64,000 nt of DNA from an uncultured virus (IMG/VR IMGVR_UViG_3300042905_004424). Lineage: Duplodnaviria; Heunggongvirae; Uroviricota; Caudoviricetes. The translations under genes and the position numbers were made by a program. Positions 2,713-63,483 of this stretch are shown here, one piece after another. Under the pieces are notes generated by a model, which did no database searches, had not been told where the DNA came from, and saw nothing but the letters and a program-made list of their open reading frames with translations. The DNA lies in the IMG/VR virus record IMGVR_UViG_3300042905_004424. The stretch is one strand, 5' to 3'. Each line of letters starts with the position of its first letter. Positions within the stretch are counted from its first letter, which is position 1.

Positions 2713-3552
2713 ATGTTATCATATATTGGGGGAAAAAGTAAGATAGGAAAGTGGATAGTTCCTTTCTACGATAAGAATATGGAAACGTATGTTGAGACGT
2801 TTGGGGGCATGTTTTGGTGTTTCTTTAATATGGACCTAAAACAGTTTCCCAACCTGAAGAAAGTTGTTTACAACGACTTTAATCCACTAAATTATAACTT
2901 ATTTAAGTGTATTCAAAACCCAACGGAGTTATTGGGGGCAATCAACTCAATTGATTGTCAAAAATTTGGTGTGGAAATTACACCACCATTATATAAAGAA
3001 CAATTTATCAGGTTTCAGGCTGAAATATTTGCTGAAAATTTCAGCGTAGAACCTGGCGATTATGATGTTGCCGCAAAATACGTTTATATTTTAACTCAAG
3101 TATTCAGTGGGTCAAAACCTGAGACAAGTTCTTTTATTGACCTTAAAGGTAAGTACAAGTCAAAATATTTGACGTTTAGAGATAAACTATTAAAACCGGA
3201 TTGGATAGAACATTTCTTAAAGATAACTCACGTTGAGAATATGGATTTTGCTGAGGTTATTGAAAAGTATGATTCGCCTAACACTTATTTTTATGTAGAT
3301 CCTCCATACTGGAAAACAGAGAACTATTACTCCAACCATGACTTTGATCGTCAAGATCACGAAAGACTTTCAAAATCTTTAATAAGTATGGAAGGTAAAT
3401 TCAGTTTATCATATTATGATTTTCCTTTATTATCCGAATGGTTTCCAAAAGATACATATACATGGGAGAAAAAAGAATTCGCTAAAGCTGCTGCCGCTAA
3501 AAAGGGTAAGGCTCAAACTATGGGCGAGGAGCTATTAATAATGAATTATTAA
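2713..3552 (+). CDS. Dam-like (D12 class) N6-adenine DNA methyltransferase
   Basis: YIGGKS N-terminus, YVETFGG motif I, YND, YVDPPY catalytic motif. Confidence 0.92.
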   Translation: MLSYIGGKSKIGKWIVPFYDKNMETYVETFGGMFWCFFNMDLKQFPNLKKVVYNDFNPLNYNLFKCIQNPTELLGAINSIDCQKFGVEITPPLYKEQFIRFQAEIFAENFSVEPGDYDVAAKYVYILTQVFSGSKPETSSFIDLKGKYKSKYLTFRDKLLKPDWIEHFLKITHVENMDFAEVIEKYDSPNTYFYVDPPYWKTENYYSNHDFDRQDHERLSKSLISMEGKFSLSYYDFPLLSEWFPKDTYTWEKKEFAKAAAAKKGKAQTMGEELLIMNY

Positions 3553-20409: not shown

Positions 20410-21258
20410 ATGATAGAAACAGGAAAAATAATAAATGGGGATTGTATTGAGGTAATGAAAACTTTACCTGAAGGTAGTGTTGATTTGGTTGTGACATCAC
20501 CACCATATAATTGCGGGATTAATTATGATACCCATATCGATACTTTACCTATGGATGATTATTGGGGGTGGACAAAAGAATGGTTAGAAGAGGCTTACCG
20601 ATTACTTAAAGATGATGGTAGAGTATCAATTAATATACCTTACGAAACAAATGTTCAAGGCAGAGGTGGAAGAGTATTTTTTGTTTCAGAATTTTATCAG
20701 GTAATGAAACAGGTTGGTTTTAAATTCTTTGGTATTGTTGATCTTGAGGAAGAATCACCACACAGAAGTAAGACAACAGCTTGGGGTTCTTGGATGAGTC
20801 CGTCTAGTCCTTATATTTATAACCCTAAAGAGTGTGTAATATTGGCTTATAAAAAACAACACATTAAAAAAATTAAAGGAGAACCACAATGGAAGGGAAC
20901 ACCTACTGAAATTGAACAGGAGGATGGGACTATAAAAAAGAAAGTGGTGTATGAGGAGAAGGATAAGAAAGAGTTTATGGAACTTGTGTTTGGTCAGTGG
21001 AATTATTTTGCAGATACTAAATCATTAACCAAGGCGACATTTAGTTTAGATATACCTTCAAAAGCAATTAAGATATTGTCATACAAAAATGATGTGGTTT
21101 TGGATCCATTTGCTGGATCAGGAACTAGTATGGTAGCGGCAGAGATTTTAGATCGTCGTTGGTTAGGTGTTGAATTGTCTGAAAATTATTGTGACGTTGC
21201 GAGAAAACGAGTTCAATCATTTGTTGATGATAAAAAACAATTAAATTTTGATTTATAG
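20410..21258 (+). CDS. beta-class N4-cytosine/N6-adenine DNA methyltransferase
   Basis: VTSPPY precedes VLDPFAGSGT. Confidence 0.93.
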   Translation: MIETGKIINGDCIEVMKTLPEGSVDLVVTSPPYNCGINYDTHIDTLPMDDYWGWTKEWLEEAYRLLKDDGRVSINIPYETNVQGRGGRVFFVSEFYQVMKQVGFKFFGIVDLEEESPHRSKTTAWGSWMSPSSPYIYNPKECVILAYKKQHIKKIKGEPQWKGTPTEIEQEDGTIKKKVVYEEKDKKEFMELVFGQWNYFADTKSLTKATFSLDIPSKAIKILSYKNDVVLDPFAGSGTSMVAAEILDRRWLGVELSENYCDVARKRVQSFVDDKKQLNFDL

Positions 21259-25029: not shown

Positions 25030-25085
25030 ATTTTTAATATAGTAAAATTATGGTAAATAAAAATATTTTTTATTATATTTGTAAT

Positions 25086-25475
25086 ATGGAAAAAATGATA
25101 TATCTAGTTAGAGGAATACCAGGAAGTGGCAAGACAACTTTTGCAAAACAATTAACACGAAATGTGTTTGAGGCAGACCATTATTTTTATGATAATGACG
25201 ATAACTACAATTTTATTGCATCTGAAATAAAAGAGGCACATAAAGAGTGTCAACAATATGTTGGATATGCGATGGAGTCAAACACACCAAAAATTGCAGT
25301 ATCAAACACATTTACACAAGAGTGGGAACTCCAACCTTATTATGAGTTAGCAATTAAGTATGGTTATTATGTGACCTCTATTATTGTGGAAAATAGACAC
25401 GGAGGAACAAACAAACATGGAGTTCTAGAAGATAAGATTCAATTAATGAAAGATAGGTTTGAGTTTAAAATATAA
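25086..25475 (+). CDS. P-loop kinase (AAA_33/polynucleotide-kinase-like)
   Basis: LVRGIPGSGKTT, EADHYF, VSNTF, HGV; ATG 4 nt after TATATTTG. Confidence 0.85.
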   Translation: MEKMIYLVRGIPGSGKTTFAKQLTRNVFEADHYFYDNDDNYNFIASEIKEAHKECQQYVGYAMESNTPKIAVSNTFTQEWELQPYYELAIKYGYYVTSIIVENRHGGTNKHGVLEDKIQLMKDRFEFKI

Positions 25476-25478
25476 GAA

Positions 25479-26132
25479 ATGAAATTTGATAAAATATTAA
25501 CTAGTGGGGTTGTTTGGATTACTTCGGACACCCACTATTCGCACAAAAACATATGTCGTGGAGTTACGGTTTGGAGAACCATAGATGGTGATATTCCAAT
25601 TGATGCGACCAGAGATTTTCCTAATTTGGATGTAATGAATAGTGTTATTGTTGATAACATTAATGAGAAGGTTGGTCCTGATGATACTTTAATTCACTTG
25701 GGTGACGTGGCTTTTGGTGGTGTTGAAAAGATAGGACAATTTTTGGATCGTTTGGTTTGTAAAAACGTTCACCTTGTTTTGGGTAATCACGATCAGAACA
25801 TAAAAAAAAATAGAGAGAACACCAAAGATAAATTTTTATCTATTCAAAACTACTTGGAGGTTAATATTGGTGGTGTTGATTTTGTGTTATCGCATTATCC
25901 ATTATCAAGTTGGAACCAACTAAATAAAGGTTCTATTCACCTTCATGGGCACGTACACCTACCAAGAAATAAAAGATTTGGTAAAGGTAAAAAAATGGAT
26001 GTTGGTATGGATGGTAATAATCTTTATCCATATAGTATAAGTGAGATCGTTCATATGATGGATAAACGATGTGTTGAGTCAGAGATGAATGGAGATCACC
26101 ACTTAGATGTTATTATTGATCTTGTGGGTTAA
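25479..26132 (+). CDS. calcineurin-like metallophosphoesterase
   Basis: TSDTHYSH, HLGD, GNHD, SHYP, LHGHVH, DVGMD. Confidence 0.9.
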   Translation: MKFDKILTSGVVWITSDTHYSHKNICRGVTVWRTIDGDIPIDATRDFPNLDVMNSVIVDNINEKVGPDDTLIHLGDVAFGGVEKIGQFLDRLVCKNVHLVLGNHDQNIKKNRENTKDKFLSIQNYLEVNIGGVDFVLSHYPLSSWNQLNKGSIHLHGHVHLPRNKRFGKGKKMDVGMDGNNLYPYSISEIVHMMDKRCVESEMNGDHHLDVIIDLVG

Positions 26133-27406: not shown

Positions 27407-27564
27407 TAAACTAAAATCATAGTTTGCTCAATACGAGGATTTATTAACCACTAATCCCAATTGTATTCGTATTTATTAGTGAACTCAACCTGCCCGTGGA
27501 ATATGGGGGTTTCTTAAAAAGATTCTTCAAGAGAGTAAATAATTTTATTTTATTTATTTTTACT

Positions 27565-29433
27565 ATGAAGAATATATTGGTTGGACTTTTTGTCCTATTT
27601 TCATCTTTCTTATTTTCTCAATCATGTTCACATACCATACAACGAACCGACACTTGGGGCGATGGTTGGAACGGAGGAACTGTGGCCGTTTCCGTTAATG
27701 GAGTAACCGTTTTATCTAATTTAAGTTGCGCCGGATATGGACCTACTTCTTCTACATTTTCTGCAGCAGTGGGGGCAACAATACGAGTGTACCGCACGGC
27801 ATCAGGATCATATCCTTCTGAAATGCGTATACGAGTTATCAATGGAGCAGGATCTACCATAATCAATACCGTTCAACCACTTGCTGGAACCTCAACTTCA
27901 GGAGGTCATATAGTGGCGGGAAGTTGTGCATCAGTATCACCGGGACCTTGTACTAATACCTATTCGTATTTAACGGCTACAATGCCATCAACTCCCGGTT
28001 TTTTTTCAGTTGGAACATGCACTTTTCAAGGGGATTACAATACATTTAATAGTGTTGTTGCAGGTAGACAATACAGATCAACTTATAGTTTAGGTGGTTG
28101 GATAACAGTAAGACACACAACACCAGGAGGAACTGTGGTTACTTCAGGACCTTCTCCACTAACATGGACCGCTACTATATCAGGGACTTATTACGTTCAT
28201 TACAATACAAATTCAAGTTGTGGAACTGCTTCTTCTTGTGGGACAGATTATATTGAATGTTTAACTTGTACTGCACCACCACCCCCATCAAATGATTTAG
28301 TGTGTAATTCAACATCTATTACTTGTGGTCAGTCAATATCAGGGACTACTGTAAACGCAACTAACTCTGGAACGGGTGAAGGTGGATTTTGTTCTGTTAG
28401 TCAAACACAACCCGGTGTTTGGTATGTTATTCCAGGAAACGGACAAATTATGACGGCAAATCTTTGTGCTACCGCATGGGATAGTAAAATGTCTGTATTT
28501 TCAGGGGTAGGGTGCGGAAGTCTAACTTGTGTAGGGGGTAATGATGATTTTGGTCCTGCTTGTGGTAGTTCATCAGCCTCATATTCATGGTCTTCTGTGG
28601 TTGGAACAAATTACTATATATTAGTTCATGGGTATAGTACAAGTAGTAGTTTTTCTATTAATGTAAATTGTGTTGCCCCTCCAACACCAGGCCCATGCAT
28701 TAATACTATTTCGTATGGAACACAAAGTTTACCTGTATTTGGTGGAATATCATACACTACCGTACCTTGTCAGTTTGCTGGTGAATACTCAACTTGGAGT
28801 GGAGCCGTGGTAGGAACACCATATATTGCTATGACTACGGTTGCAACTGATTGGATAACAGTAAGAAGTGGAGCATATAATGGAACTGTTGTTGCTGTTG
28901 GATTAGGACCATTATCCTTTACTCCGACAAACAATAATACCTTATACATACACGTTAATACAAACTCACTATGTGGAACAGTAAGTGTATGTAGAGATGT
29001 TTCTGTAACTAGAATGTCTGCATTACCTATTGAATTGTTATCGTTTGAAGGTAAGAAACAAGTTAACTCAAATATGTTATATTGGTCAACAGCGTCTGAA
29101 CATAATAGTAGTCACTTTATTATTGAAAAGAGTGTGGATGGTTTTAAATGGAGTGATATTGGACAAGTACAATCTGCTGGTAACTCAACTCAAAAAATAG
29201 ATTATAGTTTAGAAGATAAAGATGTATCTCAAGTTATCAACTACTACAGATTACATCAATACGATATAGATGGTGTGGATGAGGTATTTGGACCAATAGC
29301 GATCAACAATAGAGATAGAATAAACATCATTGCTAAGAGAATTAATTTAGCGGGTCAAGAGGTTAATGAGAATGCAACCGGAATAATTATAGAAATTTAT
29401 GAGGACGGAAGTATAAAAAGAATTATAAGGTAA
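27565..29433 (+). CDS. secreted Cys/Ser/Thr-rich Bacteroidota-type surface protein with T9SS-like C-terminus
   Basis: Signal peptide MKNILVGLFVLFSSFLFSQ; DTWGDGWNG; internal duplication; LPIELLSFEG...WSTASE.N...F.IEKS.DG...YYRL.Q.D.DG Ig-like module; NLAGQEV tail. Confidence 0.8.
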   Translation: MKNILVGLFVLFSSFLFSQSCSHTIQRTDTWGDGWNGGTVAVSVNGVTVLSNLSCAGYGPTSSTFSAAVGATIRVYRTASGSYPSEMRIRVINGAGSTIINTVQPLAGTSTSGGHIVAGSCASVSPGPCTNTYSYLTATMPSTPGFFSVGTCTFQGDYNTFNSVVAGRQYRSTYSLGGWITVRHTTPGGTVVTSGPSPLTWTATISGTYYVHYNTNSSCGTASSCGTDYIECLTCTAPPPPSNDLVCNSTSITCGQSISGTTVNATNSGTGEGGFCSVSQTQPGVWYVIPGNGQIMTANLCATAWDSKMSVFSGVGCGSLTCVGGNDDFGPACGSSSASYSWSSVVGTNYYILVHGYSTSSSFSINVNCVAPPTPGPCINTISYGTQSLPVFGGISYTTVPCQFAGEYSTWSGAVVGTPYIAMTTVATDWITVRSGAYNGTVVAVGLGPLSFTPTNNNTLYIHVNTNSLCGTVSVCRDVSVTRMSALPIELLSFEGKKQVNSNMLYWSTASEHNSSHFIIEKSVDGFKWSDIGQVQSAGNSTQKIDYSLEDKDVSQVINYYRLHQYDIDGVDEVFGPIAINNRDRINIIAKRINLAGQEVNENATGIIIEIYEDGSIKRIIR

Positions 29434-29878: not shown

Positions 29879-30100
29879 ATGAAAGAAAGAGAAGTAATTT
29901 ACGGAGTGTGTGATAAGACTGGATCTTGTGATTCCTACTTTGGGTTTTTCAAAAATGAAAAAGATGCTGAACACGAGGTTGAAGTTCAAGCTAATAGACT
30001 CAAGGAAGACTTGGGTATGATGGATATTGACATTCAAACGGACCGAGCATTATTCGATGGTAAATTAGTAATAGTAATTCATTCATATGTGTTAAGATGA
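29879..30100 (+). CDS. hypothetical protein
   Basis: 73-aa ORF coupled (ATGA) to next gene. Confidence 0.65.
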   Translation: MKEREVIYGVCDKTGSCDSYFGFFKNEKDAEHEVEVQANRLKEDLGMMDIDIQTDRALFDGKLVIVIHSYVLR

Positions 30101-30783
30101 TAAACCCAACAGGAAAAAAATTAGAAAAAATTATCTTTAAATTGTTTGACGATGCAAGTCAAGGGGTTGATAGATATAATCATAACGATAGTTTGTGGTT
30201 AATCTTTACCAATGAGATGAAATGGGTTGTTGAATACACTAAAGACCAAACTCTATGGTATAACTATAACTTCTTTAAAGATGAGATGGAGTTAATTGGT
30301 TTGGATTGTGTTGAAGATAAAGACCTTATTCAAAAATGGTTTGAGTCAAGATTTTTGGGAATGCCAAAGGTTGAAGAGGCTTTTGACCCATTTTTCGATC
30401 AAGACCAATATGTTGAAGACGTTATTCAAAATGGAGTGAAAGATATCTCTAGTGTATTATATAAAGAGTTACTCAGCGTTGAAGACACCATTCAAAATGG
30501 GGTGAAACACACCGAGGAGGGATTGAGGCCTGATGACTCTGACGTTGAAGACACCATTCAAAATGGGGTGAAACTTACCAAAAGTACAATAATGAGTCAA
30601 GATTCTAAAATTGAAAACACCATTCAAAATGGGGTGAAAGAGACTATTGGCACACTACGGCGTACTGCTAAGTGGGGTGTTGATGACATCATCCAAAATG
30701 GTGTAAAAGAAACTCATGACGATTGTTCAAATAACATTGCAAGAGTTGAAGGTATAGTTAGAATAGGTGAAAAATTAAATTAA
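30097..30783 (+). CDS. protein with C-terminal VEDTIQNGVKxT repeat/variable-spacer array
   Basis: N-terminal ~100-aa domain, then 5-6 units of 12 conserved plus 10-11 unique residues. Confidence 0.8.
   Translation: MINPTGKKLEKIIFKLFDDASQGVDRYNHNDSLWLIFTNEMKWVVEYTKDQTLWYNYNFFKDEMELIGLDCVEDKDLIQKWFESRFLGMPKVEEAFDPFFDQDQYVEDVIQNGVKDISSVLYKELLSVEDTIQNGVKHTEEGLRPDDSDVEDTIQNGVKLTKSTIMSQDSKIENTIQNGVKETIGTLRRTAKWGVDDIIQNGVKETHDDCSNNIARVEGIVRIGEKLN
30412..30780 (+). repeat. in-frame CRISPR-like array: 36-nt repeats, 30/33-nt unique spacers
   Basis: Repeats start at 30412, 30478, 30544, 30610, 30679, 30745 (last degenerate); best copy GTTGAAGACACCATTCAAAATGGGGTGAAACACACC. Confidence 0.85.
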
Positions 30784-30831
30784 TAATAGAAGTAGTAAAC
30801 ATTATTAGAAAATAATATGTATATTTGTGGA

Positions 30832-31008
30832 ATGGAAAAAGAAGATAAAATAGAAATTAATGTAAAAAATGGTGACAATTTTCATATGGATAAAGATGTG
30901 TATATTCAATGGTTAAAAGCATTTATGGTACTAAATCTTGAAAAAGAGAATTATGATGAGTGTGCCAAGTTAAGGGATGAAATAAAATCTTTAGGTGAAG
31001 ATTTTTAA
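30832..31008 (+). CDS. small UVR-domain protein
   Basis: ENYDECAKLRDEIKSL matches UvrB/UvrC motif; ATG 4 nt after TATATTTG. Confidence 0.7.
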   Translation: MEKEDKIEINVKNGDNFHMDKDVYIQWLKAFMVLNLEKENYDECAKLRDEIKSLGEDF

Positions 31009-31022
31009 AATAATAAATTGTT

Positions 31023-31328
31023 ATGAAAACAATAGAAACTAAATTTGGAACATATGTAGATATGGAAACAGAAACAAGCACAAAATTAACTGGTGATAAA
31101 ATCACGGTATTTGTAGAAAGATTAAAAAAAATCGGTATTGATGTAAAACTATCAGGAAACTTTCCTTGGGTTTATATTGATGAGATCTGTGGTAAAAGAG
31201 TTACTGAAAAGTTTGAAGGGAATCACGGGTTTACATTAATATTTTTACCAGGTAGAAACGATAGTCCACCATCTGAATTTACTGATATTACAGAGATATT
31301 CAAACTAATAAGAAAATACGCAAAATGA
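31023..31328 (+). CDS. hypothetical phage protein
   Basis: RLKKIGIDVKLSGNFPWVY...HGFT. Confidence 0.7.
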   Translation: MKTIETKFGTYVDMETETSTKLTGDKITVFVERLKKIGIDVKLSGNFPWVYIDEICGKRVTEKFEGNHGFTLIFLPGRNDSPPSEFTDITEIFKLIRKYAK

Positions 31329-31862: not shown

Positions 31863-32273
31863 ATGACAAAAGTAAAAATCTATCTAGATGATGTTCGTAC
31901 ACCGGTAGATCCAAGTTGGGTGGTTGTTCGTTCTTATGATGAATTTGTTAGTAAGATAAATGAAATTGGTTTAGAGAACATTGAACTAATTTCATTGGAT
32001 CACGATTTGGGTGATAGTGCAATGAGAGAATGGCACTACGGCGTTGTAAAAAACTACACCATCAATTACGATAATATAACAGAAAAAACTGGTATGGATT
32101 GCACCAAGTGGTTAGTGAATCAATGGTTAGATGGTAAACATATTGTTGAAGTTGTGGTTCATTCAGCAAATGCGGTGGGTAGTGGAAACATGATGGGTTA
32201 CATCAACAATTACCGACACTTGAATAGAATGGAACAAAATTGTGTAAGAGTTAAAATTGAACATACAGTATAA
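31863..32273 (+). CDS. cyclic-phosphate-processing receiver-like domain protein
   Basis: IYLDDVRTP, ISLDHDLG, TGMDCTKWL, VHSANAVG. Confidence 0.82.
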   Translation: MTKVKIYLDDVRTPVDPSWVVVRSYDEFVSKINEIGLENIELISLDHDLGDSAMREWHYGVVKNYTINYDNITEKTGMDCTKWLVNQWLDGKHIVEVVVHSANAVGSGNMMGYINNYRHLNRMEQNCVRVKIEHTV

Positions 32274-32547: not shown

Positions 32548-33681
32548 ATGGAAAATTTAAATAGTGTATGTTATGTTGGTGCAATCGGAGAGGTTAAGCC
32601 AATAGAAGGGGCAGATAACATAGAACTTGTTATGGTTAATGGTTGGAATGCCATAACTAAAAAAGGAGAATATAAAGTTGATGATTTGGTTGTTGTTGCG
32701 ACCACCGATGCGGTTATACCTGTTGAGTTATCCGACTTAATTGGTGTAACTGGTTACTTAAGAAAGGGTCAGAGAGTTAGAACTGTTAAACTTCGTGGAG
32801 TTTACTCAGAGTGTTTAATCATATCTTTAAAATATACATTTAAATCAGAAATATCTATCAATGGTTTTGTTGATGGACAAGATATGATGGGTTTACTTAA
32901 TGTCACTAAATACGAACCACCAGTTAAAATGGTCCAGTTAAGTGGGGGTAGAAAATTCAAATACCACCAAAACCCTAACTTCCATGTTTACTACAAGTTT
33001 CCCAACTTAAAGAATGTACCTGAAATGTTTAACGAGGAAGACATAGTTACTTTTACTCGTAAACTTCACGGAACAAATGCTCGTTATGGTATCGTTAAAA
33101 AGAAAAGATTATCCTTGTGGGATTATGTAAGAAAGTTATTTGGAAACAAATGGGCTAACTACGAATATGTTTATGGATCTCACAACGTAGAGAAAGGTTC
33201 TGACTCTCAAGGGTTTTACAAATCAGATGTATGGAAAACAATCGCAGATAATTACAAAATAAAAGATAAACTATGGGATTATGTTAAGACATATGGTAGT
33301 CCTGACTATTTGGGTGATGGGTTAATCATCTATGGTGAGATATATGGTCATGGTATACAAAAAAATTATGATTATGGTTTAACTGATGTTAAATTTGCTG
33401 GTTTTGATGTTGAGTTAAATGGTAATTACCGACCTTATTACGATGAAAAGAACGTTTTCAAATCTTTGGGATTACAAAGAGTTGAGGTTCTTTATTTGGG
33501 GACTTGGTCTAAAGAAAAACAAGATAAATACGTATTCAATAACAATATAGAGGGAACCAAAGTTCCACACGAAGGTGTTGTTGTTAAATCTGTTACTGGT
33601 GATAGACACAAAGTAGGTAAAGTGATCAACCCTGATTATAGTATATTCTGTGAAAAAAATAATGTAGGTGACTCCCATTGA
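32548..33681 (+). CDS. RNA ligase, DRB0094-like (N-terminal OB-like domain plus nucleotidyltransferase)
   Basis: PIEGADNIE, VRTVKLRGVYSE, KLHGTN (motif I), YGEIYG, FDV, EGVVV, KVINPDY. Confidence 0.9.
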   Translation: MENLNSVCYVGAIGEVKPIEGADNIELVMVNGWNAITKKGEYKVDDLVVVATTDAVIPVELSDLIGVTGYLRKGQRVRTVKLRGVYSECLIISLKYTFKSEISINGFVDGQDMMGLLNVTKYEPPVKMVQLSGGRKFKYHQNPNFHVYYKFPNLKNVPEMFNEEDIVTFTRKLHGTNARYGIVKKKRLSLWDYVRKLFGNKWANYEYVYGSHNVEKGSDSQGFYKSDVWKTIADNYKIKDKLWDYVKTYGSPDYLGDGLIIYGEIYGHGIQKNYDYGLTDVKFAGFDVELNGNYRPYYDEKNVFKSLGLQRVEVLYLGTWSKEKQDKYVFNNNIEGTKVPHEGVVVKSVTGDRHKVGKVINPDYSIFCEKNNVGDSH

Positions 33682-36679: not shown

Positions 36680-36760
36680 ATGTTAATTATGACCATATTG
36701 TTTATTCTTTTAATCCTATGTATTGGGGTTTGGGGTAAACACGGAAAACACTTTAAGTGA
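36680..36760 (+). CDS. 26-aa single-TM peptide (not in ORF track)
   Basis: MLIMTILFILLILCIGVWGKHGKHFK*; ATG 4 nt after TATCTTTG; stop overlaps next ATG. Confidence 0.5.
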   Translation: MLIMTILFILLILCIGVWGKHGKHFK

Positions 36761-37359
36761 TGAAAATAATACTACTTGATAATGATGGTGTGATTTGTTT
36801 ATCCAATAATTGGGGTGGACGAGCAAAGAAATGGGCAAATTTTCATAAGGATAATCCTGATGTTGAATTTACAAATCGTCCTATTGATTGTAGGTTTGAT
36901 AACTTTGATGAGAAGGCAATTAAGGTCCTTAATGAAATACTTGAAGAAACCGGTGCTGAAATAGTTGTAAGTTCAGATTGGAGATACAATGCAACACTTG
37001 AGGAACTTGGCGATTACTACATAAGTCAAGGAATCATCAAACGACCAATTGCAGTAACGGATATGTTCAAAGACATATTCCCAAGAGAATGGAATGCGTT
37101 TAGGTTTCGTGCTGATTTAGAAATAGAACGAAGTATGGAGATCGGACACTGGTTAGAGAACCATCCCGAAGTTACGCATTGGGTTGCAATTGATGACCTC
37201 AACATGAGTATTGAGTTTTTATCTAAAAACTTTTCACATAGTAAAGATGATGATAAAAACCCCGGTCTATCTAATTTTGTTCTAACACCAAAAGCAAGTG
37301 AGGGAATCAAACAAAGTGGTATTAAAGAAAAAATATTAAAGTTTTTGAAAGATGAGTAG
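36760..37359 (+). CDS. HAD-superfamily phosphatase, Swiss-Army-Knife RNA-repair type
   Basis: LLDNDGV, IVVSSDWR, RSMEIGHWL, WVAIDD. Confidence 0.85.
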   Translation: MKIILLDNDGVICLSNNWGGRAKKWANFHKDNPDVEFTNRPIDCRFDNFDEKAIKVLNEILEETGAEIVVSSDWRYNATLEELGDYYISQGIIKRPIAVTDMFKDIFPREWNAFRFRADLEIERSMEIGHWLENHPEVTHWVAIDDLNMSIEFLSKNFSHSKDDDKNPGLSNFVLTPKASEGIKQSGIKEKILKFLKDE

Positions 37360-48237: not shown

Positions 48238-48845
48238 TTTTAGAAAAAATAAAAAGTAAAATTTGGCTCATATCAATACCAGTTGCTATAGCGGCCTTAT
48301 TATCAATGTCCGCAATAAAAGATATTGAAGACGCTCATGTAGAGCTAGATTTAGGTAAACGAACCGCATATTATTTAAGAACATCTACGGATAGTTTAAC
48401 CTATTTGGCAATAGCATATACGGCCACTGGTAAAGAAAAATTCATTAATGAGTTTAATTCCCATTTAGAAAGAAGAAAACAACTAAAATTTGATATTATA
48501 CCTGAAGGTATGGTATATTACAATGAAGGTTTAAGTTTGAGTAATGAATTAGCGTCAGTAATAGAGGCTCCGGCATTTAAAGCAATGAATGACACGGCAT
48601 TTTTTACTGATCAATATTTGTCGTATAAAACTAGAATTATTTCTAGTATAGAACATCTAAGAGATGTGACATATGAAAAATCAAATAACAAACTTCAACG
48701 AGCTATACTTGAATTAAACATTTATATATACTTTTTGGTTCTATTACTATTGGGATTTGTTATTTTAATCAGATTTGATAAGCCAATTGTTATTACTCCA
48801 GTAAAAAAGAAAAAAACAATTAAAAAACCCATAAAAAAGAAATGA
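48234..48845 (+). CDS. two-TM protein with helical extracytoplasmic domain
   Basis: TM, LRTSTDSLTYLA..YTATG...F...F, TM, Lys-rich tail; resembles sensor domains of chemoreceptors/kinases. Confidence 0.6.
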   Translation: MILEKIKSKIWLISIPVAIAALLSMSAIKDIEDAHVELDLGKRTAYYLRTSTDSLTYLAIAYTATGKEKFINEFNSHLERRKQLKFDIIPEGMVYYNEGLSLSNELASVIEAPAFKAMNDTAFFTDQYLSYKTRIISSIEHLRDVTYEKSNNKLQRAILELNIYIYFLVLLLLGFVILIRFDKPIVITPVKKKKTIKKPIKKK

Positions 48846-49858
48846 AAACAAAAAAACACGCACGTATGAAACAAAATCAAACAGCCGAAACACATTCAGA
48901 TGAAACCTCAGGTGGTGCATCATTTGATAATACAACTACTGCATCCGCAGGAATAGAAACAGGAGATGAAAATGCCTCAATTGGTATTGAAGCGTCCGCT
49001 AAAACTGGAACAGAGGCATCAGTAGATGGTGGATTAGATGGTAATAACGTTTATGTTGAAGCCAGTTATTCAGATACAACTGAAGTTCATGTAACAGTAG
49101 AAGGTCAGGCTAACGCAGAAGGATTCGGAGTTAATGGTACTGTAGACGCTTACGCTAAAACAGGAAATGAGGCAAGTTTAGAAGTAAGGGCAGGTGATGA
49201 AGGAGTGGTTGCAAATGGAAGTGTATCGGCAGGAAGTTCAGTTGGTGTCGATGGTGAAGGAACTTTAGATTTAAGAGAAGGTTCAGTAACTGCAGGTGCC
49301 GGTGTATCAGTTGGAGAACAAGTTGGTGTTGGTGGTGGTGGTGAAGCTACTTATGTAGATGGTGTCGCAACTGTCGGAGTTAGTGGTGAAGTGGCAGTTT
49401 TACTTGGTGTTGATGTTGATCTAAGCGTTAGTGTTGATACGAATCAAATCGCTGAAGACGCAAGACTGGCGGCTGAACAATCAGAACGTGCTGCGGCAGA
49501 AGCGAAAGAATTGGCTGAATCAACACAAAGAGAATCTGAACGACTTGCAAAAATAGCCCAAGAAGAAACTGAAAGAAAGGCGAGAGAAGCTCAAGAAGAA
49601 CTTGACAGACAATCCAAAGCTGCTAAAGAAGAAAGTGATAGATTGGCAAGAATCGCACAGGAAGAACTTGACAGACAAGCAAGAGCAGCACAAGAAGAAC
49701 TTGACAGACAATCGAGAGCGGCACAAGATGAACTTAATAGACAAGCGAGAGCGGCACAAGATGAACTTGATAGACAGGCAAGAGACGCTCAAGATGCGTT
49801 AAATAGAGCCGCAGAAGACGCTAAAAAATCAAAATGGAATCCAAAGAATTGGTTTTAA
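48842..49858 (+). CDS. Gly/Ala/Val beta-rich protein with 11-residue coiled-coil repeats
   Basis: (G/A)xV/A strands followed by AQ(E/D)ELDRQARA repeats; ends WNPKNWF. Confidence 0.75.
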   Translation: MKTKKHARMKQNQTAETHSDETSGGASFDNTTTASAGIETGDENASIGIEASAKTGTEASVDGGLDGNNVYVEASYSDTTEVHVTVEGQANAEGFGVNGTVDAYAKTGNEASLEVRAGDEGVVANGSVSAGSSVGVDGEGTLDLREGSVTAGAGVSVGEQVGVGGGGEATYVDGVATVGVSGEVAVLLGVDVDLSVSVDTNQIAEDARLAAEQSERAAAEAKELAESTQRESERLAKIAQEETERKAREAQEELDRQSKAAKEESDRLARIAQEELDRQARAAQEELDRQSRAAQDELNRQARAAQDELDRQARDAQDALNRAAEDAKKSKWNPKNWF

Positions 49859-58450: not shown

Positions 58451-61249
58451 ATGCCAATTAAACTAACAATATCACAACAACCTAACGGAGTTTTATTCTC
58501 AGGATCAGGAACACTTAATACAACCTCACTTCAAAATTTACCATCATGGGGATTAAACATGGGAACTGGAATTTTTTTTAGAGGCCCAAGTAAAATTGTT
58601 GGTGGAGCCGTTGGTAATATAAAGTTACATTCAAACTTACTACAAAATTTAGTGCCAATAAGTACATTATCAAGTAGTATATATGGTACTAGTGGTGTTA
58701 TTAATTTAACGGGGGGGGCTATGAATTATTTTTTCTCAATAGGTAACCCTTGGAATGATAGTAATTCTTTTCCAAACGCCCTATCTTATTCTGATAATTA
58801 CATTTCAAATCAACCTTTTAATTTTTCATATCTTATACCTAATCAAACTTATACAAGTTTAGGTATAGTTCCACAAAATAATACTTATAGTTGGACAAAT
58901 CCGCAGTTAGGTGTTTCTGACAACGTACAGGTTGTGGTATTACAACCACAAAACGCGAATGTTATAATTACTATACAACAAGTTTTAAATACTGTTAACG
59001 TAAGTGTTGTTGGAACAATAAACCCTAACGGATTAGTACCTAATGGTGTTTTTACTTATAATCCTGGTGGTTATTTAAAAGGTTCAAACCCAAATAAAAG
59101 GGTTTTTATGTTTCCTGATAACGCTCAGATGCAAACATGGCAGATAACATCATACCCTACACAACCCTTTTCACTCAATCAAGGCATTGTTGCTGCCAAT
59201 ATTCAGCCATCACAACCACCATACTTTCTTATTGATAATTCTAGTTTTGGAATTAGTTCAAATGCGACAAGCGGTTACATAAATACATCAATGGTTTATA
59301 ATGATCCTGGAGCAACGATTCAAACCTTAGGTTTCATTACAGGAACTTACATATGGATGGCGCCCAACAACGTATTCCAAATGAATGTTTTACCGCCACC
59401 ATCACCTACACCAACTGTAACACCAACTAAGACTACAACACCAACAGTTACACCAACAAAAACAGTTACACCAACTGTTACTAAAACACCAACTGTAACA
59501 CCAACAAATACCGCAACACCAACAAATACCGCAACACCAACTGTAACTCCAACAATTACGCCAACAAATACTGCAACACCAACTGTCACACCGACACTTA
59601 CTCTTACGCCAACAGTTACAAATACAGTTACACCGACAATAACCGCAACTCAAACTGAAACACCAACACCAACTGTTACACCTACCAATACTTTAACACC
59701 AACAGTTACGGCTACAAATACGCCGACATTAACTAAAACACCATCACCTACACCAACAACAACACCAACTAACACTCCAAGTAACACACCAAACATATCA
59801 TCAAACTGTTGTTCAAATCCTGAAAATCTTCCACAAGTTAATCAAACAGTTGTTAGAAACTTCACAAACGTAACTGCTACAGGTTCTGGAAACATTGGAG
59901 TAGGTCCTAATGCTATTAATACGTATTACCAACAATATATAGGATCATTTACAATGTTGAGTGATATTATTTTAGGAACAAATGGTGGGTTTACTTATAC
60001 TTTAACTTTTTCAAATCAGATTCAAGGGATAAGATTTTTAATGTATGGAATGAATGTTAGTCCGGTATGTTCATTTACATTCACAACAGACAGTGGACCT
60101 ATAACTATTACCACATGTCAAAGCGGATGTTTAAGTGTTTCTGGAAATGTTATTTCGACAAGTACGCCATGTAATCTTCTTGCAGGGGCTGGTTATTTTG
60201 AAATAATACCTACCTCTCCTTTCACAATATTAACTATAACAGGACCAGGTGATTCGGGGGGTACGGGTCTTCAACTATGTTATTTAGATGCAATAATTCC
60301 TTCACCAACACCGACACCAACAAATACCTTAACACCAACACCAACTGTTACCGTAAGTGTTACACCAAGTATTGCTGCGTCACCAACAGCGACACCTACA
60401 AACACGGCAACACCAACAGTTACACCAACAGTTACACCAACGATTACTGAAACCCCAACACCTACGGTTACTCCAACAATTACGGAAACACCGACCGAAA
60501 CGCCAACAAATACACCAACATTAACACCAACAAATACGCCAACTGTTACTGTAACGCCAACTGTTACGGCAACTAACACGCAAACACCAACTGTAACACC
60601 GACTGAAACACCAACAAATACACCAACAGTAACGTCAACAGTAACACCAACTGTCACACCTACTGCAACTCCAACATTAACACCACAGTCAACAGTTACT
60701 CCAACTTTAACTTCAACACCAACTCTTACACCTACGGTAACTACAACGCCATCAGTAACGCCTACATTAACGGCAACACCAACAGCGACTGTAACACCGA
60801 CTATTTCAATTACACCGACGTTGACACCAACACCAACAACTTCACCAGCACCATCAAATGTGACAATATTACTCAACACATTAATTGTTGATGGTTCAAT
60901 TAACATGTTAGTTACAATTAATTATAACAATACAATTCCATTTGCAACTATTGTAAGTTTCAACCTGAACTTGGTTTATACTAATGGAACAACGTATACA
61001 GTTCCGTTTACAATCAACATGCCGGCAAATACACCACAAGGATTTGGATCGTTTAATATTCCAGGAAATGCGGCACAAATATCACAAGGACTTACAAATA
61101 TTAGTAATGTTGTGATTACCAATTATTCAGGAACCGTTATTCCAAATATTAATATTACGGTAAATCCTACGCCAACACCAACACCTACAGCGACATTAAC
61201 ACCATTCCCAACAGTAACACCTTCACCGGCTAACTGTTGTATAATTTAA
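58451..61249 (+). CDS. large Pro/Thr-rich mucin-like, probably virion surface protein
   Basis: Beta-rich domains separated by long TPT(V/N/P)TPT linkers; TATTTAT at 58427; ends TPSPANCC. Confidence 0.8.
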
Positions 61250-61323: not shown

Positions 61324-63483
61324 ATGCCAATTACAATCAATATTTACCAACAACCTAACGGACTTCAATTCCAAGGATCAGGAACGCTAAACTTAGACTC
61401 ATTTATTGGGAAAACACAAGGAAATGCGGCTAACGTAAATCAAGGTCTTAGATTCAGATCTAATGCTTTAAATAATTTAGCTTTAAATAGATTATCATGG
61501 ATAGGTCTTAATAATCCTAACACTAATTATAGGTTTTACCCTAATTTATTTACGACAATACCAAATTTTGGAACCTCCTCAACAGATTATACTACCGCTA
61601 TAAATACATTTGCAACAGGAGGTCAGTTTTTTATGGTGGGACAAGATGCGACTATAGGGCAATTAACCGTTCCACAGTCTTATGTTTCAGGTTTAAATTT
61701 TAGTTGGGGTTTTTTATTACCAAGTTTAACCTATGCTGGTTTAGGAATGTCTCCACAAACAATTACACGAAGTTGGACTGGATCTACTGGTGTGGTTGAG
61801 ACTCTAACAATTATCGTCAACCCATTACCAACGTCAAATGTTAATATAAACGTTATTGAAACTAATGGAAATGTTTATGTTGAAGTTGTTGGAAATATAG
61901 GGACTGGATATGTAACGGCATGTGGACTTGGATTTGGACCTGGAAATTCAATATTCTCATCACAAAGATGGGTACAATTTGGGTCTAGTAGTGTTGGTTT
62001 TTGTAAAGTGCAAATAAATTCTTTCCCACCAAGTTTTGGGAATACCTCAAGAACCGCTAATATTGGATCTCAGTTCACTCCTTTTAGAGTTGACAATCAA
62101 GGGGCTTACTTTGATCAAAATGCTTTAACTGATGATATTAATACAAGTATAACTTTTACTGGAACAACAATTGCCGGTATGGGTTTAAATACTGGAGTAT
62201 ATAATTGGTATGGACCCGATAATAATATCCAAATGAATATTATTGGACCAACACCAACACCAACGGTTACGGCAACCAACACGCAAACACCAACCGTAAC
62301 ACCAACAAATACCGTTACACCCACAATTACGCCAACAGTAACGCCAACAGTTACGGAGACACCAACACCAACACCTACACCTACAGTTACGCCAACAGTT
62401 ACAACTACGGTTACTATTACACCAACTGAGACACCAACTAATACGCCAACACTTACGCCAACACTTACAGAAACACCTACCCCAACAGTTACGGCAACTG
62501 TAACAGAAACTCCTACACCAACCGCAACAGAAACACCTACAGCAACACCTACAGCAACTGTAACACAATCTGTCACACCTACTATTACACCAACAACTAC
62601 GGTTACTATTACGCCAACTGAGACACCAACTAATACACCAACACTTACACCAACAATAAGTATTACACCTAGTTTTGCGTCTTCACCAACACCTACACCT
62701 ACAATTACGGAAACACCTACTGTTACTCCTACTGTTACTCCTACGGTTACTGAAACACCTACAAATACTCCGACAGTAACTCCAACAAATACAACAACAC
62801 CAACACAAACAGTTACGGAAACACCAACTCAAACACCAACAGGAACTCCATCGGTTACACCAACAGTTACGGAGACACCAACTCAAACACCAACAGGAAC
62901 TCCATCGGTTACACCAACTATTACACCAACACTTACAGAAACACCATCGGTTACACCTACTAATACGATTACGCCTACGGCAACACAAACACTTACACCT
63001 ACTGTTACTCAAACACAAACTCAAACTCCTACACCGACAGCAACTGTTACCCCATCTAAATCTCCAGCACCTGCCACTTTAAATGCAAATTTTAATGTAA
63101 ATGTGGTTGATGGATCAATATCAGTAATAACAACTGTTTCTTACAATTTAGGAATTCCAGTTCCAACTATAGTTTACTTCACAGTAAATATTATTTTAAC
63201 AAATGGTGTAATATTTACAGTCCCTGAAAGTATTACGATCCCTGCATCCACATTACAAGGATCTGTAACTACTACACTTCCAGGAAATGCGGCACAAGTA
63301 TCTAACTTAAGTTATGTGAATAATATAACAATTACAAACTATGCTGGAGTTGTTATACCAAATATTATAATTAGCATCAACCCAACACCAACACCTACGC
63401 CAACAGCAACATTAACACCACTACCAACTATAACACCTTCACCGGCTAATTGTTGTCCAATACTTGCAATACCAGGATCTTAA
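61324..63483 (+). CDS. Pro/Thr-rich mucin-like protein, paralog of 58451..61249
   Basis: Shared N-terminus MPI...QQPNG..F.GSGTLN and shared C-terminal domain (VDGSI...PGNAAQ.S...TPSPANCC). Confidence 0.8.

Follow-up and report, generated by a model that had tools for sequence, protein, structure and literature searches.

The 36 + 30-nt repeat-spacer array in the window (the whole stretch of 64,000 nucleotides analysed) is coding sequence: it forms the 3' part of the gene at 30097..30783 and the C-terminal part of the encoded 228-residue protein. The original prediction had proposed that the array might be a target at which Cas1-Cas2 integrates spacers, or a CRISPR array turned into coding sequence, and neither is supported; two findings that it had named as speaking against it were made, in that the same spacers recur in distant homologues, often letter for letter, and no protospacer was found in phage genomes, phage records or exact searches. 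The evidence points to a cassette array reshuffled by ordinary recombination, and not written by CRISPR enzymes. Taken as a whole, the gene is best explained, with a probability of about 0.7, as encoding a modular repeat protein, translated from the array, that loses and exchanges cassettes when homologous recombination takes place within the repeats.

The array gene and its protein family

The array gene (30097..30783, plus strand; 228 codons, with the stop codon within these coordinates) comprises an N-terminal domain, the unit array and a C-terminal element. It resides in the genome of a freshwater (lake) jumbo phage of roughly 290 kb, where it is surrounded by RNA-repair genes and small genes of early type and not by structural genes. 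Each array unit, with a period of 66 or 69 nt (22 or 23 residues), is composed of the motif VEDTIQNGVKxT and a cassette of 10–11 residues, and each cassette is present only once in the window protein. As predicted, every period keeps the frame of the open reading frame.

The protein belongs to a large family without a name, drawn from phage and metagenome sequence. A search at E ≤ 0.01 gave 2433 homologues; clustered at 50% identity, the family has 503 clusters, and 73 viral loci carry it. The proposed variation in unit number around a fixed repeat is borne out: homologue lengths rise in steps of ~22 aa, corresponding to between 3 and about 27 units, each consisting of VEDTIQNGVKxT and a unique cassette of 10–13 residues. 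No family was matched in Pfam, PHROGs, NCBIfam or PADLOC, and literature searches found no description of the array protein family. Three complete phage genomes of 292–309 kb carry a single array gene each, one relative lacks the gene, and no second copy of the N-domain or of the repeat sequence was found in the rest of the 64-kb window. A profile search of genome contigs with the protein alignment gave one locus, on a 3.4-kb contig of a MAG labelled Polynucleobacter, which is too little to name the host. Contigs of RNA-library assemblies overlap parts of the array gene and, as assembled contigs, indicate its presence only.

Database similarities to two named domains were rejected. The dodecin profile (PF07311/NF043052; 64–67 positions long) was matched only at positions 12–43, by summing many weak repeats, and the window protein scored 16.8 bits against a cut-off of 75. 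A weak HU-CCDC81 match is likewise the product of summing the short motif.

Layout of the repeats and cassettes

All features of the array lie on the plus strand. Repeat 1, VEDVIQNGVKDI (30412..30447), agrees with the second copy at 29 of 36 positions and is followed by cassette 1, SSVLYKELLS (30448..30477; 30 nt), which is present in 23 of 120 close homologues. Repeat 2, VEDTIQNGVKHT (30478..30513), is the canonical copy and serves as reference (36/36); exact matches to its 32-nt core are present in 31 viral stretches, among them 233–309-kb phage contigs of distant lineages. Cassette 2, EEGLRPDDSD (30514..30543; 30 nt), is found in 25 of the 120 close homologues, and its exact DNA only within array genes, at five loci in IMG/VR and one in JGI metagenomes. 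Repeat 3, VEDTIQNGVKLT (30544..30579; 34/36), precedes cassette 3, KSTIMSQDSK (30580..30609; 30 nt), whose family occurs in 50/120 close homologues with synonymous variants. Repeat 4, IENTIQNGVKET (30610..30645; 31/36), precedes cassette 4, IGTLRRTAKWG (30646..30678; 33 nt), whose family occurs in 42/120 and has relatives in distant lineages. Repeat 5, VDDIIQNGVKET (30679..30714; 28/36), leads into the conserved C-terminal element (30715..30780), made up of cassette 5, HDDCSNNIAR, and the degenerate repeat 6, VEGIVRIGEKLN, with a predicted helix at residues 214–223. The counterpart of this element in distant homologues is ETHDDVYHHKGR with [VI][DE]GVIKNGVK.

Six repeats had been proposed, and those starting at 30412, 30478, 30544, 30610 and 30679 are confirmed: a repeat finder returned five 37-nt copies, at 30411, 30477, 30543, 30609 and 30678, spaced by 66, 66, 66 and 69 nt. 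The sixth, at 30745, agrees with the canonical copy at only 19 of 36 positions and was not reported by the repeat finder; the sole ground for counting it as a degenerate terminal repeat is the regular motif that distant homologues have at this place. With up to 3 mismatches allowed, a 27-nt repeat core was found three times and at no other place in the 64 kb, against an expectation of 0.00 derived from 100 shuffles. Tandem Repeats Finder, run on the window, did not list the array, as expected where half of each unit is unrelated. Upstream, repeat-finder families D2 and D6 mark a repeat-like stretch, VEDKDLIQKW (30310..30339), in the last helix of the N-domain, and a second repeat-like start at 30370-30384; the first regular motif of distant homologues comes directly after the place of the former.

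Further features read from the letters also hold. The spacers of 30, 30, 30, 33 and 30 nt are mutually unrelated, with 6–13 of 30 positions alike in pairwise comparison, which is the chance level; spacers 2 and 4 are GC-rich (17/30 and 18/33, against 30.6% for the window); and at codons 5, 8 and 9 all differences among the five repeats are synonymous (ATT/ATC, GGA/GGG/GGT and GTG/GTA).

Predicted structure and the fate of the chain

In the AlphaFold2 model, residues 1–88 (30097..30360) form an N-terminal domain of one helix, four strands and two helices, with pLDDT values of 70–92 in the window protein and 92–96 in a distant homologue. Residues 89–212 stay below 50, and the C-terminal helix reaches 63–83. 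A 611-residue homologue gives the same picture. The N-domain of ~88 residues is thus confidently folded in the models, and the chain of units, for which they offer no confident fold, is predicted to be flexible. A fold search with the N-domain against the PDB gave a best Z of 5.0 and no known fold, and against BFVD it returned only uncharacterised proteins of uncultured Caudovirales; a search of the ESM Atlas gave no usable feature match, with structural matches below threshold.

Cyanobactin-type precursors contain several cores that are freed as short peptides. The array protein might be such a multi-core peptide precursor, in which the N-domain would be the leader, the motifs recognition or cleavage sites, and the cassettes the released peptides. 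Constant flanks around variable 10–13-residue cores, each core occurring once per protein, would suit this arrangement, as would a unit region with no confident fold and the purifying selection on old cores (see below). Maturation genes were not found nearby, however: no protease, cyclase, ATP-grasp or other maturation enzyme is encoded among 24 neighbours in the window, nor is any maturation enzyme within 3 kb at 12 diverse loci (64 ORFs). In addition, no signal peptide is evident by eye, and the conserved C-terminal element and the cassette order suggest that the chain stays intact. We consider a precursor function unlikely.

With a rather low probability, the protein may be a dispensable, cytoplasmic host-interaction factor, encoded among RNA-repair genes: a flexible chain that carries exchangeable short peptides as binding or decoy motifs. 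The diversity of such a factor would stem from an arms race with the defences of the host. We offer this function tentatively.

An ordered repertoire of cassettes

Each gene holds a subset of a shared cassette repertoire in largely fixed order. Across the family, the repertoire comprises at least 376 sequence families in 270 proteins; the 120 close homologues contain 152 distinct peptides in 82 families, arranged in 96 architectures, and all but one of their 40 commonest cassette families are present at most once per protein. Pairs of cassettes were observed in collinear order 1696 times and in the contrary order 42 times. The common order implies that cassettes are inherited or exchanged, and not captured independently.

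The two ends of the array differ in character. Cassettes known from at most three proteins account for 25% at unit 1 and for 4–7% at the C-proximal units, and the canonical motif accounts for 68% of unit 1 versus 2–10% of units 6–8. The C-proximal cassettes are old and widespread and stand behind diverged motifs, whereas the N-proximal cassettes are rarer and stand behind letter-perfect repeats. Change at one end, as the original prediction had it, is what the family displays, with variability and perfect repeats gathered N-proximally.

Spacers are 30 nt long in 249 of 324 cases. We note that this sharp length and the single variable end are both features that a CRISPR array would show.

Among the 376 cassette families, 11 pairs share 6 of 10 residues, against 0.5 expected; the excess is small, and most families are unrelated. 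This counts against the preferred explanation, in which the slow origin of new cassettes is a proposal.

Coding character and selection

In 55 distinct array genes, 364 distinct repeat-like 30-mers were found; without exception they keep to the motif frame and fall within long open frames, whereas only 54% of random 30-mers from the window are free of stop codons. The GC content of the spacers follows a coding-type gradient over the three codon positions (0.46/0.40/0.33). Rare cassettes already have this composition (0.443/0.385/0.295), unlike stop-free random 30-mers (0.358/0.313/0.302). Related cassette pairs are in the same frame in 149 cases, shifted in one and on the reverse strand in six; derivation of cassettes by frame shift or inversion, which was considered, is not supported by this count.

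Within cassette families, pN/pS (dN/dS) is about 0.15, and differences fall on the three codon positions as 245/205/520, a pattern that shows the old C-proximal cassettes to be under purifying selection. Together with the coding-type composition, it upholds the selection at the protein level that had been proposed from the synonymous repeat differences.

Behind canonical repeats, the differences between cassettes are distributed 22:14:27 over the codon positions (8 clusters), with no clear purifying selection. This weak signal is an observation that counts against the preferred explanation.

Probable exchange of units by recombination

Under the preferred reading, units would probably be deleted, inserted and swapped between co-infecting phages by homologous recombination, for which the 36-nt repeats would be the only stretches long and alike enough between diverged genes. 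The same exchange, together with gene conversion, would keep the repeats uniform in DNA. New cassettes would form slowly by unit duplication, chimera formation and divergence, with no capture by CRISPR enzymes.

Evidence for exchange comes from the DNA shared by otherwise diverged genes. Where the N-domains of two genes are less than 50% identical, the fraction of identical residues encoded by the same codon is 0.44 for the N-domain, but 0.84 for the cassettes that both genes have; synonymous-site conservation in the repeats is 0.71. Since cassettes equal or exceed repeats in this respect, recent exchange of whole units fits better than selection on the repeats alone. In six gene pairs, a cassette of 36–39 nt is letter-identical at an N-domain DNA identity of 64–68%. 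One locus (L015) has chimeric and duplicated cassettes within a single array. Relatives whose flanks are 92–98% identical have different arrays, and assemblies of lake runs break at the repeats, which have many different neighbours there.

The window itself probably bears the mark of one such event. Two loci (L012 and L008) and a third homologue (protein P0003) have an extra unit, HTQDNNLSESES, between the first repeat and the DISSVLYKELLS unit. Repeat 1 of the window is probably a hybrid that arose by deletion; a crossover removing the unit that these three sequences retain would be expected to leave such a repeat. This sole insertion/deletion that can be read in DNA resembles a crossover between two repeats and not a duplication of the first repeat.

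The constancy of the motif in DNA is pronounced. The coding of the canonical motif agrees at 97.3% inside arrays and at 94.4% when lineages whose N-domains are less than 60% identical are compared, against 84.5% predicted from background codon usage. The motif favours ACC (89% versus 34% in the rest of the gene), GGG (59% versus 15%) and GTG (62% versus 21%). This constancy exceeds what the protein needs and counts against the preferred explanation; recombination may be its cause.

CRISPR-linked readings

A different account of letter-perfect repeats across distant phage lineages is that the CRISPR machinery of a Bacteroidota host makes use of the gene, either as a target of II-C Cas1-Cas2 or as a translated mimic of Cas13b repeats, and that this use would keep the repeats perfect. 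The array has the regularity of repeats and spacers of a CRISPR locus; it is coding, and no cas genes were found in the window, no Cas1 in five phage records and no protospacers in the phage sequences searched. The evidence disfavours both forms of this account, which is improbable overall.

In the first form, a host Cas1-Cas2 (for example of type II-C) would add 66-nt units N-proximally and thereby write new 10-residue peptides. The exact 36 + 30 geometry agrees with this, and one integration would add 36 + 30 = 66 nt, so the frame would be kept. Rare cassettes and perfect repeats are gathered at one end, most cassette families have no kinship to each other, and young cassettes show no clear selection. 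In addition, the available text on F. columnare describes II-C and VI-B arrays that both have 36-bp repeats, the VI-B array being filled in trans (Hoikkala 2021, PMC8092290).

Against this stands the search for protospacers. Comparison of 324 spacers with 959,355 bases (three related genomes and the window) gave best matches of 17–21 nt and a top score of 36.2 bits, against 34.2 bits for shuffled spacers. A search of 50,697 records of cultured phages gave 41 with a match, none below E 0.4; the 30 listed have 84–89% identity over 8–10% of the query, and the other 11 include two short ones at ≥99% identity. With BLAST, 279 spacers against 529 kb of window and locus flanks gave, among the matches listed, 12–17 nt each, and an exact search with one spacer (IMG/VR and JGI metagenomes) returned array genes only. 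The absence of cas genes from the window, as the original prediction stated, is confirmed with PADLOC (0 matches among 82 ORFs of ≥90 aa), and Cas1 (PF01867) was found in none of five records, including three phage genomes 98–100% complete. Moreover, the first two repeats of P0003, L012 and L008 differ at codon 4, where they should agree had the first repeat been duplicated, and the coding-phase composition of rare cassettes and the cassette order common to different genes, both described above, are further evidence against capture. The expected turnover between strains is seen in part: units differ between strains, but the array of the window shows no change across four viral contigs or across lake runs from 2020–2024. 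We regard spacer capture as quite unlikely. The original interpretation thus stands for unit variation, the single variable end and selection on the protein, and is not supported for the CRISPR mechanism.

In the second form, a sense or antisense transcript with look-alikes of Cas13b repeats would soak up or misload the type VI-B effector of the host, acting as a coding RNA anti-CRISPR. The uniformity of the repeat in DNA goes beyond codon usage, and RNA-repair genes adjoin the array gene. In the form in which we presume the Flavobacterium Cas13b repeat, about two thirds of its positions are alike on the minus strand of the array repeat. The repeat and spacer lengths match those of the 66-nt Cas13b crRNA, which the Smargon preprint, in its available part, gives as a 36-nt repeat with a 30-nt spacer (10.1101/092577). 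Each strand has one correct terminus: the plus strand (GUUG...CACC, with an A-run) begins correctly with 5'-GUUG, and the minus strand (GGUG...CAAC) ends correctly with CAAC-3' and carries a U-run in its loop.

Neither strand, however, has both of the complementary ends, 5'-GUUG and CAAC-3', that would pair in a type VI-B repeat with its U-run loop. The predicted CCATT-CAA-AATGG hairpin is present in the repeat, and the predicted folds leave the ends unpaired and are no better than those of shuffles (z of −0.13 and −0.19 on the two strands of copy 2). The full 36-nt consensus occurs only in young units, codons 11–12 vary widely, and shared cassettes equal or exceed the repeats in synonymous-site conservation, as noted above. 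No CRISPR repeat was matched in Rfam, where a scan at E ≤ 10 gave only a chance snoRNA match outside the array. No promoter-like site for an antisense transcript was found among sigma-70-type sites; the scan for such promoters and terminators gave fewer sites than shuffles, and Bacteroidota promoters fall outside its scope. Solitary-repeat RNA anti-CRISPRs (Racrs) are described in the available text of PMC10651486 for all CRISPR types except VI. Racrs are small non-coding repeat mimics, and the repeats here are coding and arrayed. Mimicry is therefore very unlikely on these grounds.

Finally, a folded structural repeat (a solenoid or fibre with the motif as core and cassettes as surface loops, such as a virion or tail component) is highly improbable: the models place short helices or hairpins at the motifs and tblastn gives weak matches to phage tape-measure proteins (best E 8e-4, 21–27% identity), but in two AlphaFold2 runs the units do not pack and mostly score below 50 in pLDDT, the cassettes are polar and irregular in composition, the unit number varies from 3 to about 27 among close relatives, and the gene, which one relative lacks, lies among RNA-repair and small early-type genes and not structural ones. 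A tape-measure assignment was rejected on the weak similarity and on the neighbouring genes.

Meaning of the family

CRISPR finders and human readers alike will take such an array for a CRISPR locus, and knowledge of a large phage family with CRISPR layout allows false CRISPR calls to be avoided. As a modular repeat protein, the family represents unstudied combinatorial protein diversity in viruses, with hundreds of ordered cassettes that pass between distant phages and are linked by a motif of almost constant DNA sequence. Should the cassettes serve as binding or decoy motifs, the family would catalogue points of contact between phage and host in lake Bacteroidota phages. If the repeat DNA is constant because CRISPR enzymes use it, adaptive immunity and protein evolution would be connected in a novel way.

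Comparison with known systems

Like the VI-B and II-C arrays of Flavobacterium and other Bacteroidota, as described in the available parts of PMC8092290 and 10.1101/092577, the phage array has 36-nt repeats that start with GTTG, unique 30-nt spacers, a 66-nt period, variation at one end and degenerate repeats at the other. Unlike them, it is fully translated in frame, with no cas genes or protospacers found; its spacers have coding composition and show purifying selection; and its repeat lacks complementary GUUG/CAAC ends on either strand and a stable fold. With Racrs (PMC10651486, available text), it shares a phage location, the length and layout of a CRISPR repeat and the lack of cas genes. 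A Racr differs in being a small non-coding RNA in which one repeat follows a promoter, and none is described there for type VI, whereas the phage array has many repeats inside an ORF and so far no matched host repeat.

Cyanobactin-type precursors have hypervariable short cores with flanks conserved even in DNA, and their number of cassettes varies. The phage array likewise combines variable cores, DNA-conserved flanks and a varying number of cassettes; it differs in having no maturation enzymes nearby, a long folded N-domain and up to about 27 cores, and in belonging to a phage.

In mosaic proteins with element patterns, such as sea-urchin Sp185/333 (PMC3342357), and in bacterial repeat proteins of variable length, the periscope proteins (PMC9704523), so far as the available texts describe them, diversity comes from short sequence blocks that are present or absent in fixed order and recombination is mediated by repeats, as proposed here. 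These are cellular immune or surface proteins, whereas the phage protein would be cytoplasmic and is set apart by the strict period of motif plus cassette and by a pan-repertoire of hundreds of cassettes.

A translated repeat-spacer array

The array gene (ORF 30097–30783, plus strand) encodes an N-terminal domain (N-domain), a series of repeat-spacer units and a C-terminal element. Sequence reading and a repeat search both place five copies of the 36-nt repeat, which encodes the motif VEDTIQNGVKxT, at 30412, 30478, 30544, 30610 and 30679 (spacing of 66, 66, 66 and 69), with 29, 36, 34, 31 and 28 of 36 positions, respectively, identical to copy 2 (30478–30513), the canonical repeat. The stretch at 30745, missed by the repeat search, matches copy 2 at 19 of 36 positions, and we accept it as a putative degenerate terminal repeat because distant homologues have a regular motif at that place. 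The intervening spacers of 30, 30, 30, 33 and 30 nt are alike at 6–13 of 30 positions in pairwise comparison, and spacers 2 and 4 have a GC content of 17/30 and 18/33, with 30.6% for the window. A 27-nt repeat core occurs three times, versus 0.00 by chance, and is absent from the rest of the window. The whole array is in frame within ORF 30097–30783, so that both the repeat-spacer geometry and the in-frame translation of the original prediction are borne out, the sixth repeat being the degenerate one. The small hairpin ascribed to the repeat is present, but on neither strand is the predicted fold of the repeat RNA more stable than those of shuffled sequences.

A modular protein family with a predicted flexible unit region

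The 228-residue product has no family in Pfam, PHROG, NCBIfam or PADLOC, and the parts of the literature available to us hold no description that we could find. A clustered protein collection contains 2433 homologues at E ≤ 0.01, the lengths of which progress in steps of ~22 residues (206, 228, 250, 272, 292, 314, 336 and 353); the family comprises 503 clusters at 50% identity and 73 viral loci. By unit decomposition, homologues have from 3 to about 27 units, in proteins of up to 811 residues; units of 22 residues are the most frequent (948), followed by units of 23 (209). Some phages possess two tandem paralogues, as in the viral loci L015 (2719–5178; 420 and 397 residues) and L055 (1195–4581; 314 and 811 residues), each with a separate N-domain and a separate cassette set (the cassette being the peptide encoded by a spacer); three complete genomes have one array gene apiece.

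AlphaFold2 (44 homologues) predicts the N-domain, residues 1–88, with confidence (pLDDT 70–92), whereas residues 89–212 of the window protein score below 50 and the C-terminal helix scores 63–83. For a homologue of 611 residues from a deeper lineage, the prediction agrees: pLDDT is 92–96 in the N-domain, stays mostly under 50 across the units, where short helices are placed on the motifs, and returns to confident values over the last 15 residues. Neither a solenoid nor any other packed repeat fold is predicted in the two proteins. No convincing structural relative of the N-domain was found (best PDB Z of 5.0, and uncharacterised phage proteins in BFVD), nor was an N-domain paralogue elsewhere in the window. 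The BFVD proteins resembling the N-domain model, about ten from 'uncultured Caudovirales phage', have adjacent accession numbers, and several are just 104–130 residues long (TM by target of 0.5–0.64), which suggests that the N-domain may also occur as a stand-alone protein, with several copies in one phage.

Cassette repertoire, order and coding constraint

The same spacers recur throughout the units of close homologues, in differing combinations. In 120 close homologues, 680 spacers reduce to 152 distinct peptides and 82 families (32 of them seen once only), arranged in 96 architectures. All but one of the 40 commonest families occur at most once per protein, and cassette order is collinear (1696 versus 42 pairwise observations). 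In 270 proteins, the 12-residue spacers alone account for 550 distinct peptides in 376 families, with a small excess of similarity between families (11 pairs at 6/10 identities, versus 0.5 in shuffles). Rare cassettes, those present in at most 3 of the 120 proteins, account for 25% of first positions and 4–7% near the C-terminus, and 68% of first units have VEDTIQNGVK exactly, versus 2–10% of units 6–8. One end of the array is thus variable and its repeats perfect; at the other, conserved end the repeats have decayed.

The spacers have the composition of coding sequence. Each of the 364 distinct repeat-like 30-mers taken from 55 array genes is in frame within a long open frame, the stop-free share of random 30-mers being 54%, and related cassettes form 149 pairs in frame, one shifted and six on the reverse strand. 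Spacer GC by codon position (0.46/0.40/0.33) follows a coding-type gradient, and single-lineage cassettes (n = 165; 0.443/0.385/0.295) resemble those that are widespread, the values for random stop-free 30-mers from the window being 0.358/0.313/0.302. Within spacer families defined at ≥70% DNA identity, codons with a single difference comprise 371 synonymous and 226 non-synonymous cases (pN/pS of 0.15), and differences fall 245/205/520 by codon position. This purifying signal stems from cassettes behind diverged repeats (231:188:434), whereas cassettes behind near-canonical repeats (8 clusters; 22:14:27) are indistinguishable from neutral.

Probable exchange and loss of units through the repeats

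We read the array gene as encoding a modular repeat protein, the cassettes of which are probably lost and exchanged by homologous recombination in the repeats. Among N-domain pairs less than 50% identical, identical residues share the same codon in 44% of cases in the N-domain, 84% in shared cassettes and 71% in the repeats of shared cassettes, the share in repeats of unrelated units being 69%. In six pairs with 64–68% N-domain DNA identity, a 36–39-nt cassette is identical letter for letter. Units with exact VEDTIQNGVK are 97.3% identical in coding sequence within arrays and 94.4% across lineages with N-domain identity below 60%, versus 84.5% predicted from codon usage, and the favoured codons are otherwise uncommon. 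Unit exchange between phages via the repeats can yield such near-identical motif coding, the repeats being the sole sequences with enough similarity for recombination between diverged genes; it may account for the uniformity. The repeat DNA or RNA may also have a role of its own.

Individual arrays carry probable traces of such events. One array of L015 has a chimeric duplicate in which a cassette end and the following motif occur twice. The homologous protein P0003 and the loci L012 and L008 retain an extra unit, HTQDNNLSESES, and their two first repeats differ at codon 4; in an array like that of P0003, a crossover joining repeats 1 and 2 would produce the odd first repeat of the window (VEDV...DI). 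The protein P0012 is the window protein without unit 2. The closest relatives with DNA have flanks 92–98% identical and arrays of 7–12 units of differing composition.

The stretch is present in public runs of lake-water metagenomes dated 2020–2024. Contigs from these runs break off at the repeats, beyond which many different sequences follow, and depth summed at the repeats reaches 896 versus ~40 in the flanks. One joined form runs from 30096 to 31023, omitting 30097–31022 (the array gene plus the small ORF after it), so a relative without the array gene exists, in which the gene is dispensable. Other contigs have a 16-letter stretch in place of 30354–30477 or 30354–30543, giving variants without the linker and first unit(s). 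In 3 of 12 loci (L020 1786–2526, L048 5195–5812 and L013 6142–6654), genes resembling GIY-YIG and/or NUMOD3 homing endonucleases are found no more than 3 kb from the array gene and may promote local recombination.

Genome context

The window is AT-rich, with nearly all genes on one strand. PHROG and Pfam matches include DNA methyltransferases, thymidylate synthase, endolysin, RNA ligase and further RNA-repair domains (cREC_REC, HAD_SAK_2 and a P-loop kinase with phosphoesterase). The RNA-repair set is scattered around the array gene (25050–26132, 31863–32273, 32548–33681 and 36757–37359), its members being a P-loop kinase with calcineurin-like phosphoesterase, a cREC_REC (cyclic-phosphate processing receiver) protein, an RNA ligase and the HAD domain of 'Swiss Army Knife' RNA-repair proteins. 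Of 47 distinct loci, 18 have the cREC_REC gene downstream of the array gene, and 18 have a 95-residue ORF, these being the commonest neighbours. The ORF of 63 residues that immediately follows the array gene (30817–31008) occurs in one of the 47, and its DNA is absent from the closest relatives. Two DNA methyltransferase genes (2713–3552 and 20410–21258) have PHROG and PADLOC type II/orphan matches.

ORF 27496–29433 (645 residues, rich in Cys, Gly, Thr and Ser, with no Pfam or PHROG family) has an internal duplication by eye, and its C-terminal stretch may resemble Bacteroidota type IX secretion sorting domains. ORFs 58451–61249 (932 residues) and 61324–63483 (719 residues) are full of Thr-Pro-rich tandem repeats of 6–66 nt (many TRF rows), and both match phrog_15511, of unknown function. 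TRF also finds a repeat at 49547–49794 (periods of 33/66/99 nt, 2.5–7 copies, 74–76% matches) within ORF 48842–49858, encoding a periodic Gln/Glu/Arg-rich stretch.

The sole match in cultured-phage DNA is to Flavobacterium phages (71% identity over 429 nt). A viral contig of 90 kb, with a completeness rating of 31%, also contains the array gene, and the viral records in which relatives occur (292, 295 and 309 kb) have completeness ratings of 98–100%.

Function and comparison with known systems

Tentatively, with a probability of roughly 0.3, we propose that the array protein is a cytoplasmic host-interaction protein presenting exchangeable short peptides on a flexible chain; no conserved partner enzyme was found near the gene. 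The main alternative, a peptide precursor, draws on the conserved flanks, which resemble those of multi-core precursors, but the 64 flanking ORFs of 12 loci include neither a protease nor an ATP-grasp enzyme, nor a cas gene.

In layout, the array resembles type VI-B or II-C CRISPR arrays, but apart from this geometry it lacks the features of such arrays for which tests were made. As originally predicted, the 82 window ORFs contain no cas protein; Cas1 is lacking in five records, and no Rfam family was found in the array. When 324 spacers (249 of them exactly 30 nt) were searched against 959,355 bases of three complete relatives and the window, with arrays masked, the best matches were 17–21 nt long, the top one scoring 36.2 bits versus 34.2 for shuffled spacers; among cultured phages, no match fell below E 0.4. 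The protospacers that the CRISPR-like view called for did not appear in these sequences. Exact search with spacer 2 found no match outside array genes, the matches being five IMG/VR loci and one JGI metagenome contig. Three results speak against capture of DNA into the array: the protospacer searches, the composition of the cassettes and the comparison of first repeats.

Type VI-B repeats are described as 36 nt long, with 5'-GUUG/CAAC-3' ends that pair and a run of U in the loop; the spacers measure 30 nt and the crRNA 66 nt (10.1101/092577). The window array matches the repeat length and spacer size, but its repeat has one of the two ends per strand, left unpaired in the predicted folds. F. 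columnare has II-C and VI-B arrays both with 36-bp repeats, the VI-B array being filled in trans (PMC8092290), which makes the geometry of the array noteworthy without proving anything about it. In its behaviour, the array gene is like the genes of mosaic, repeat-recombining proteins.
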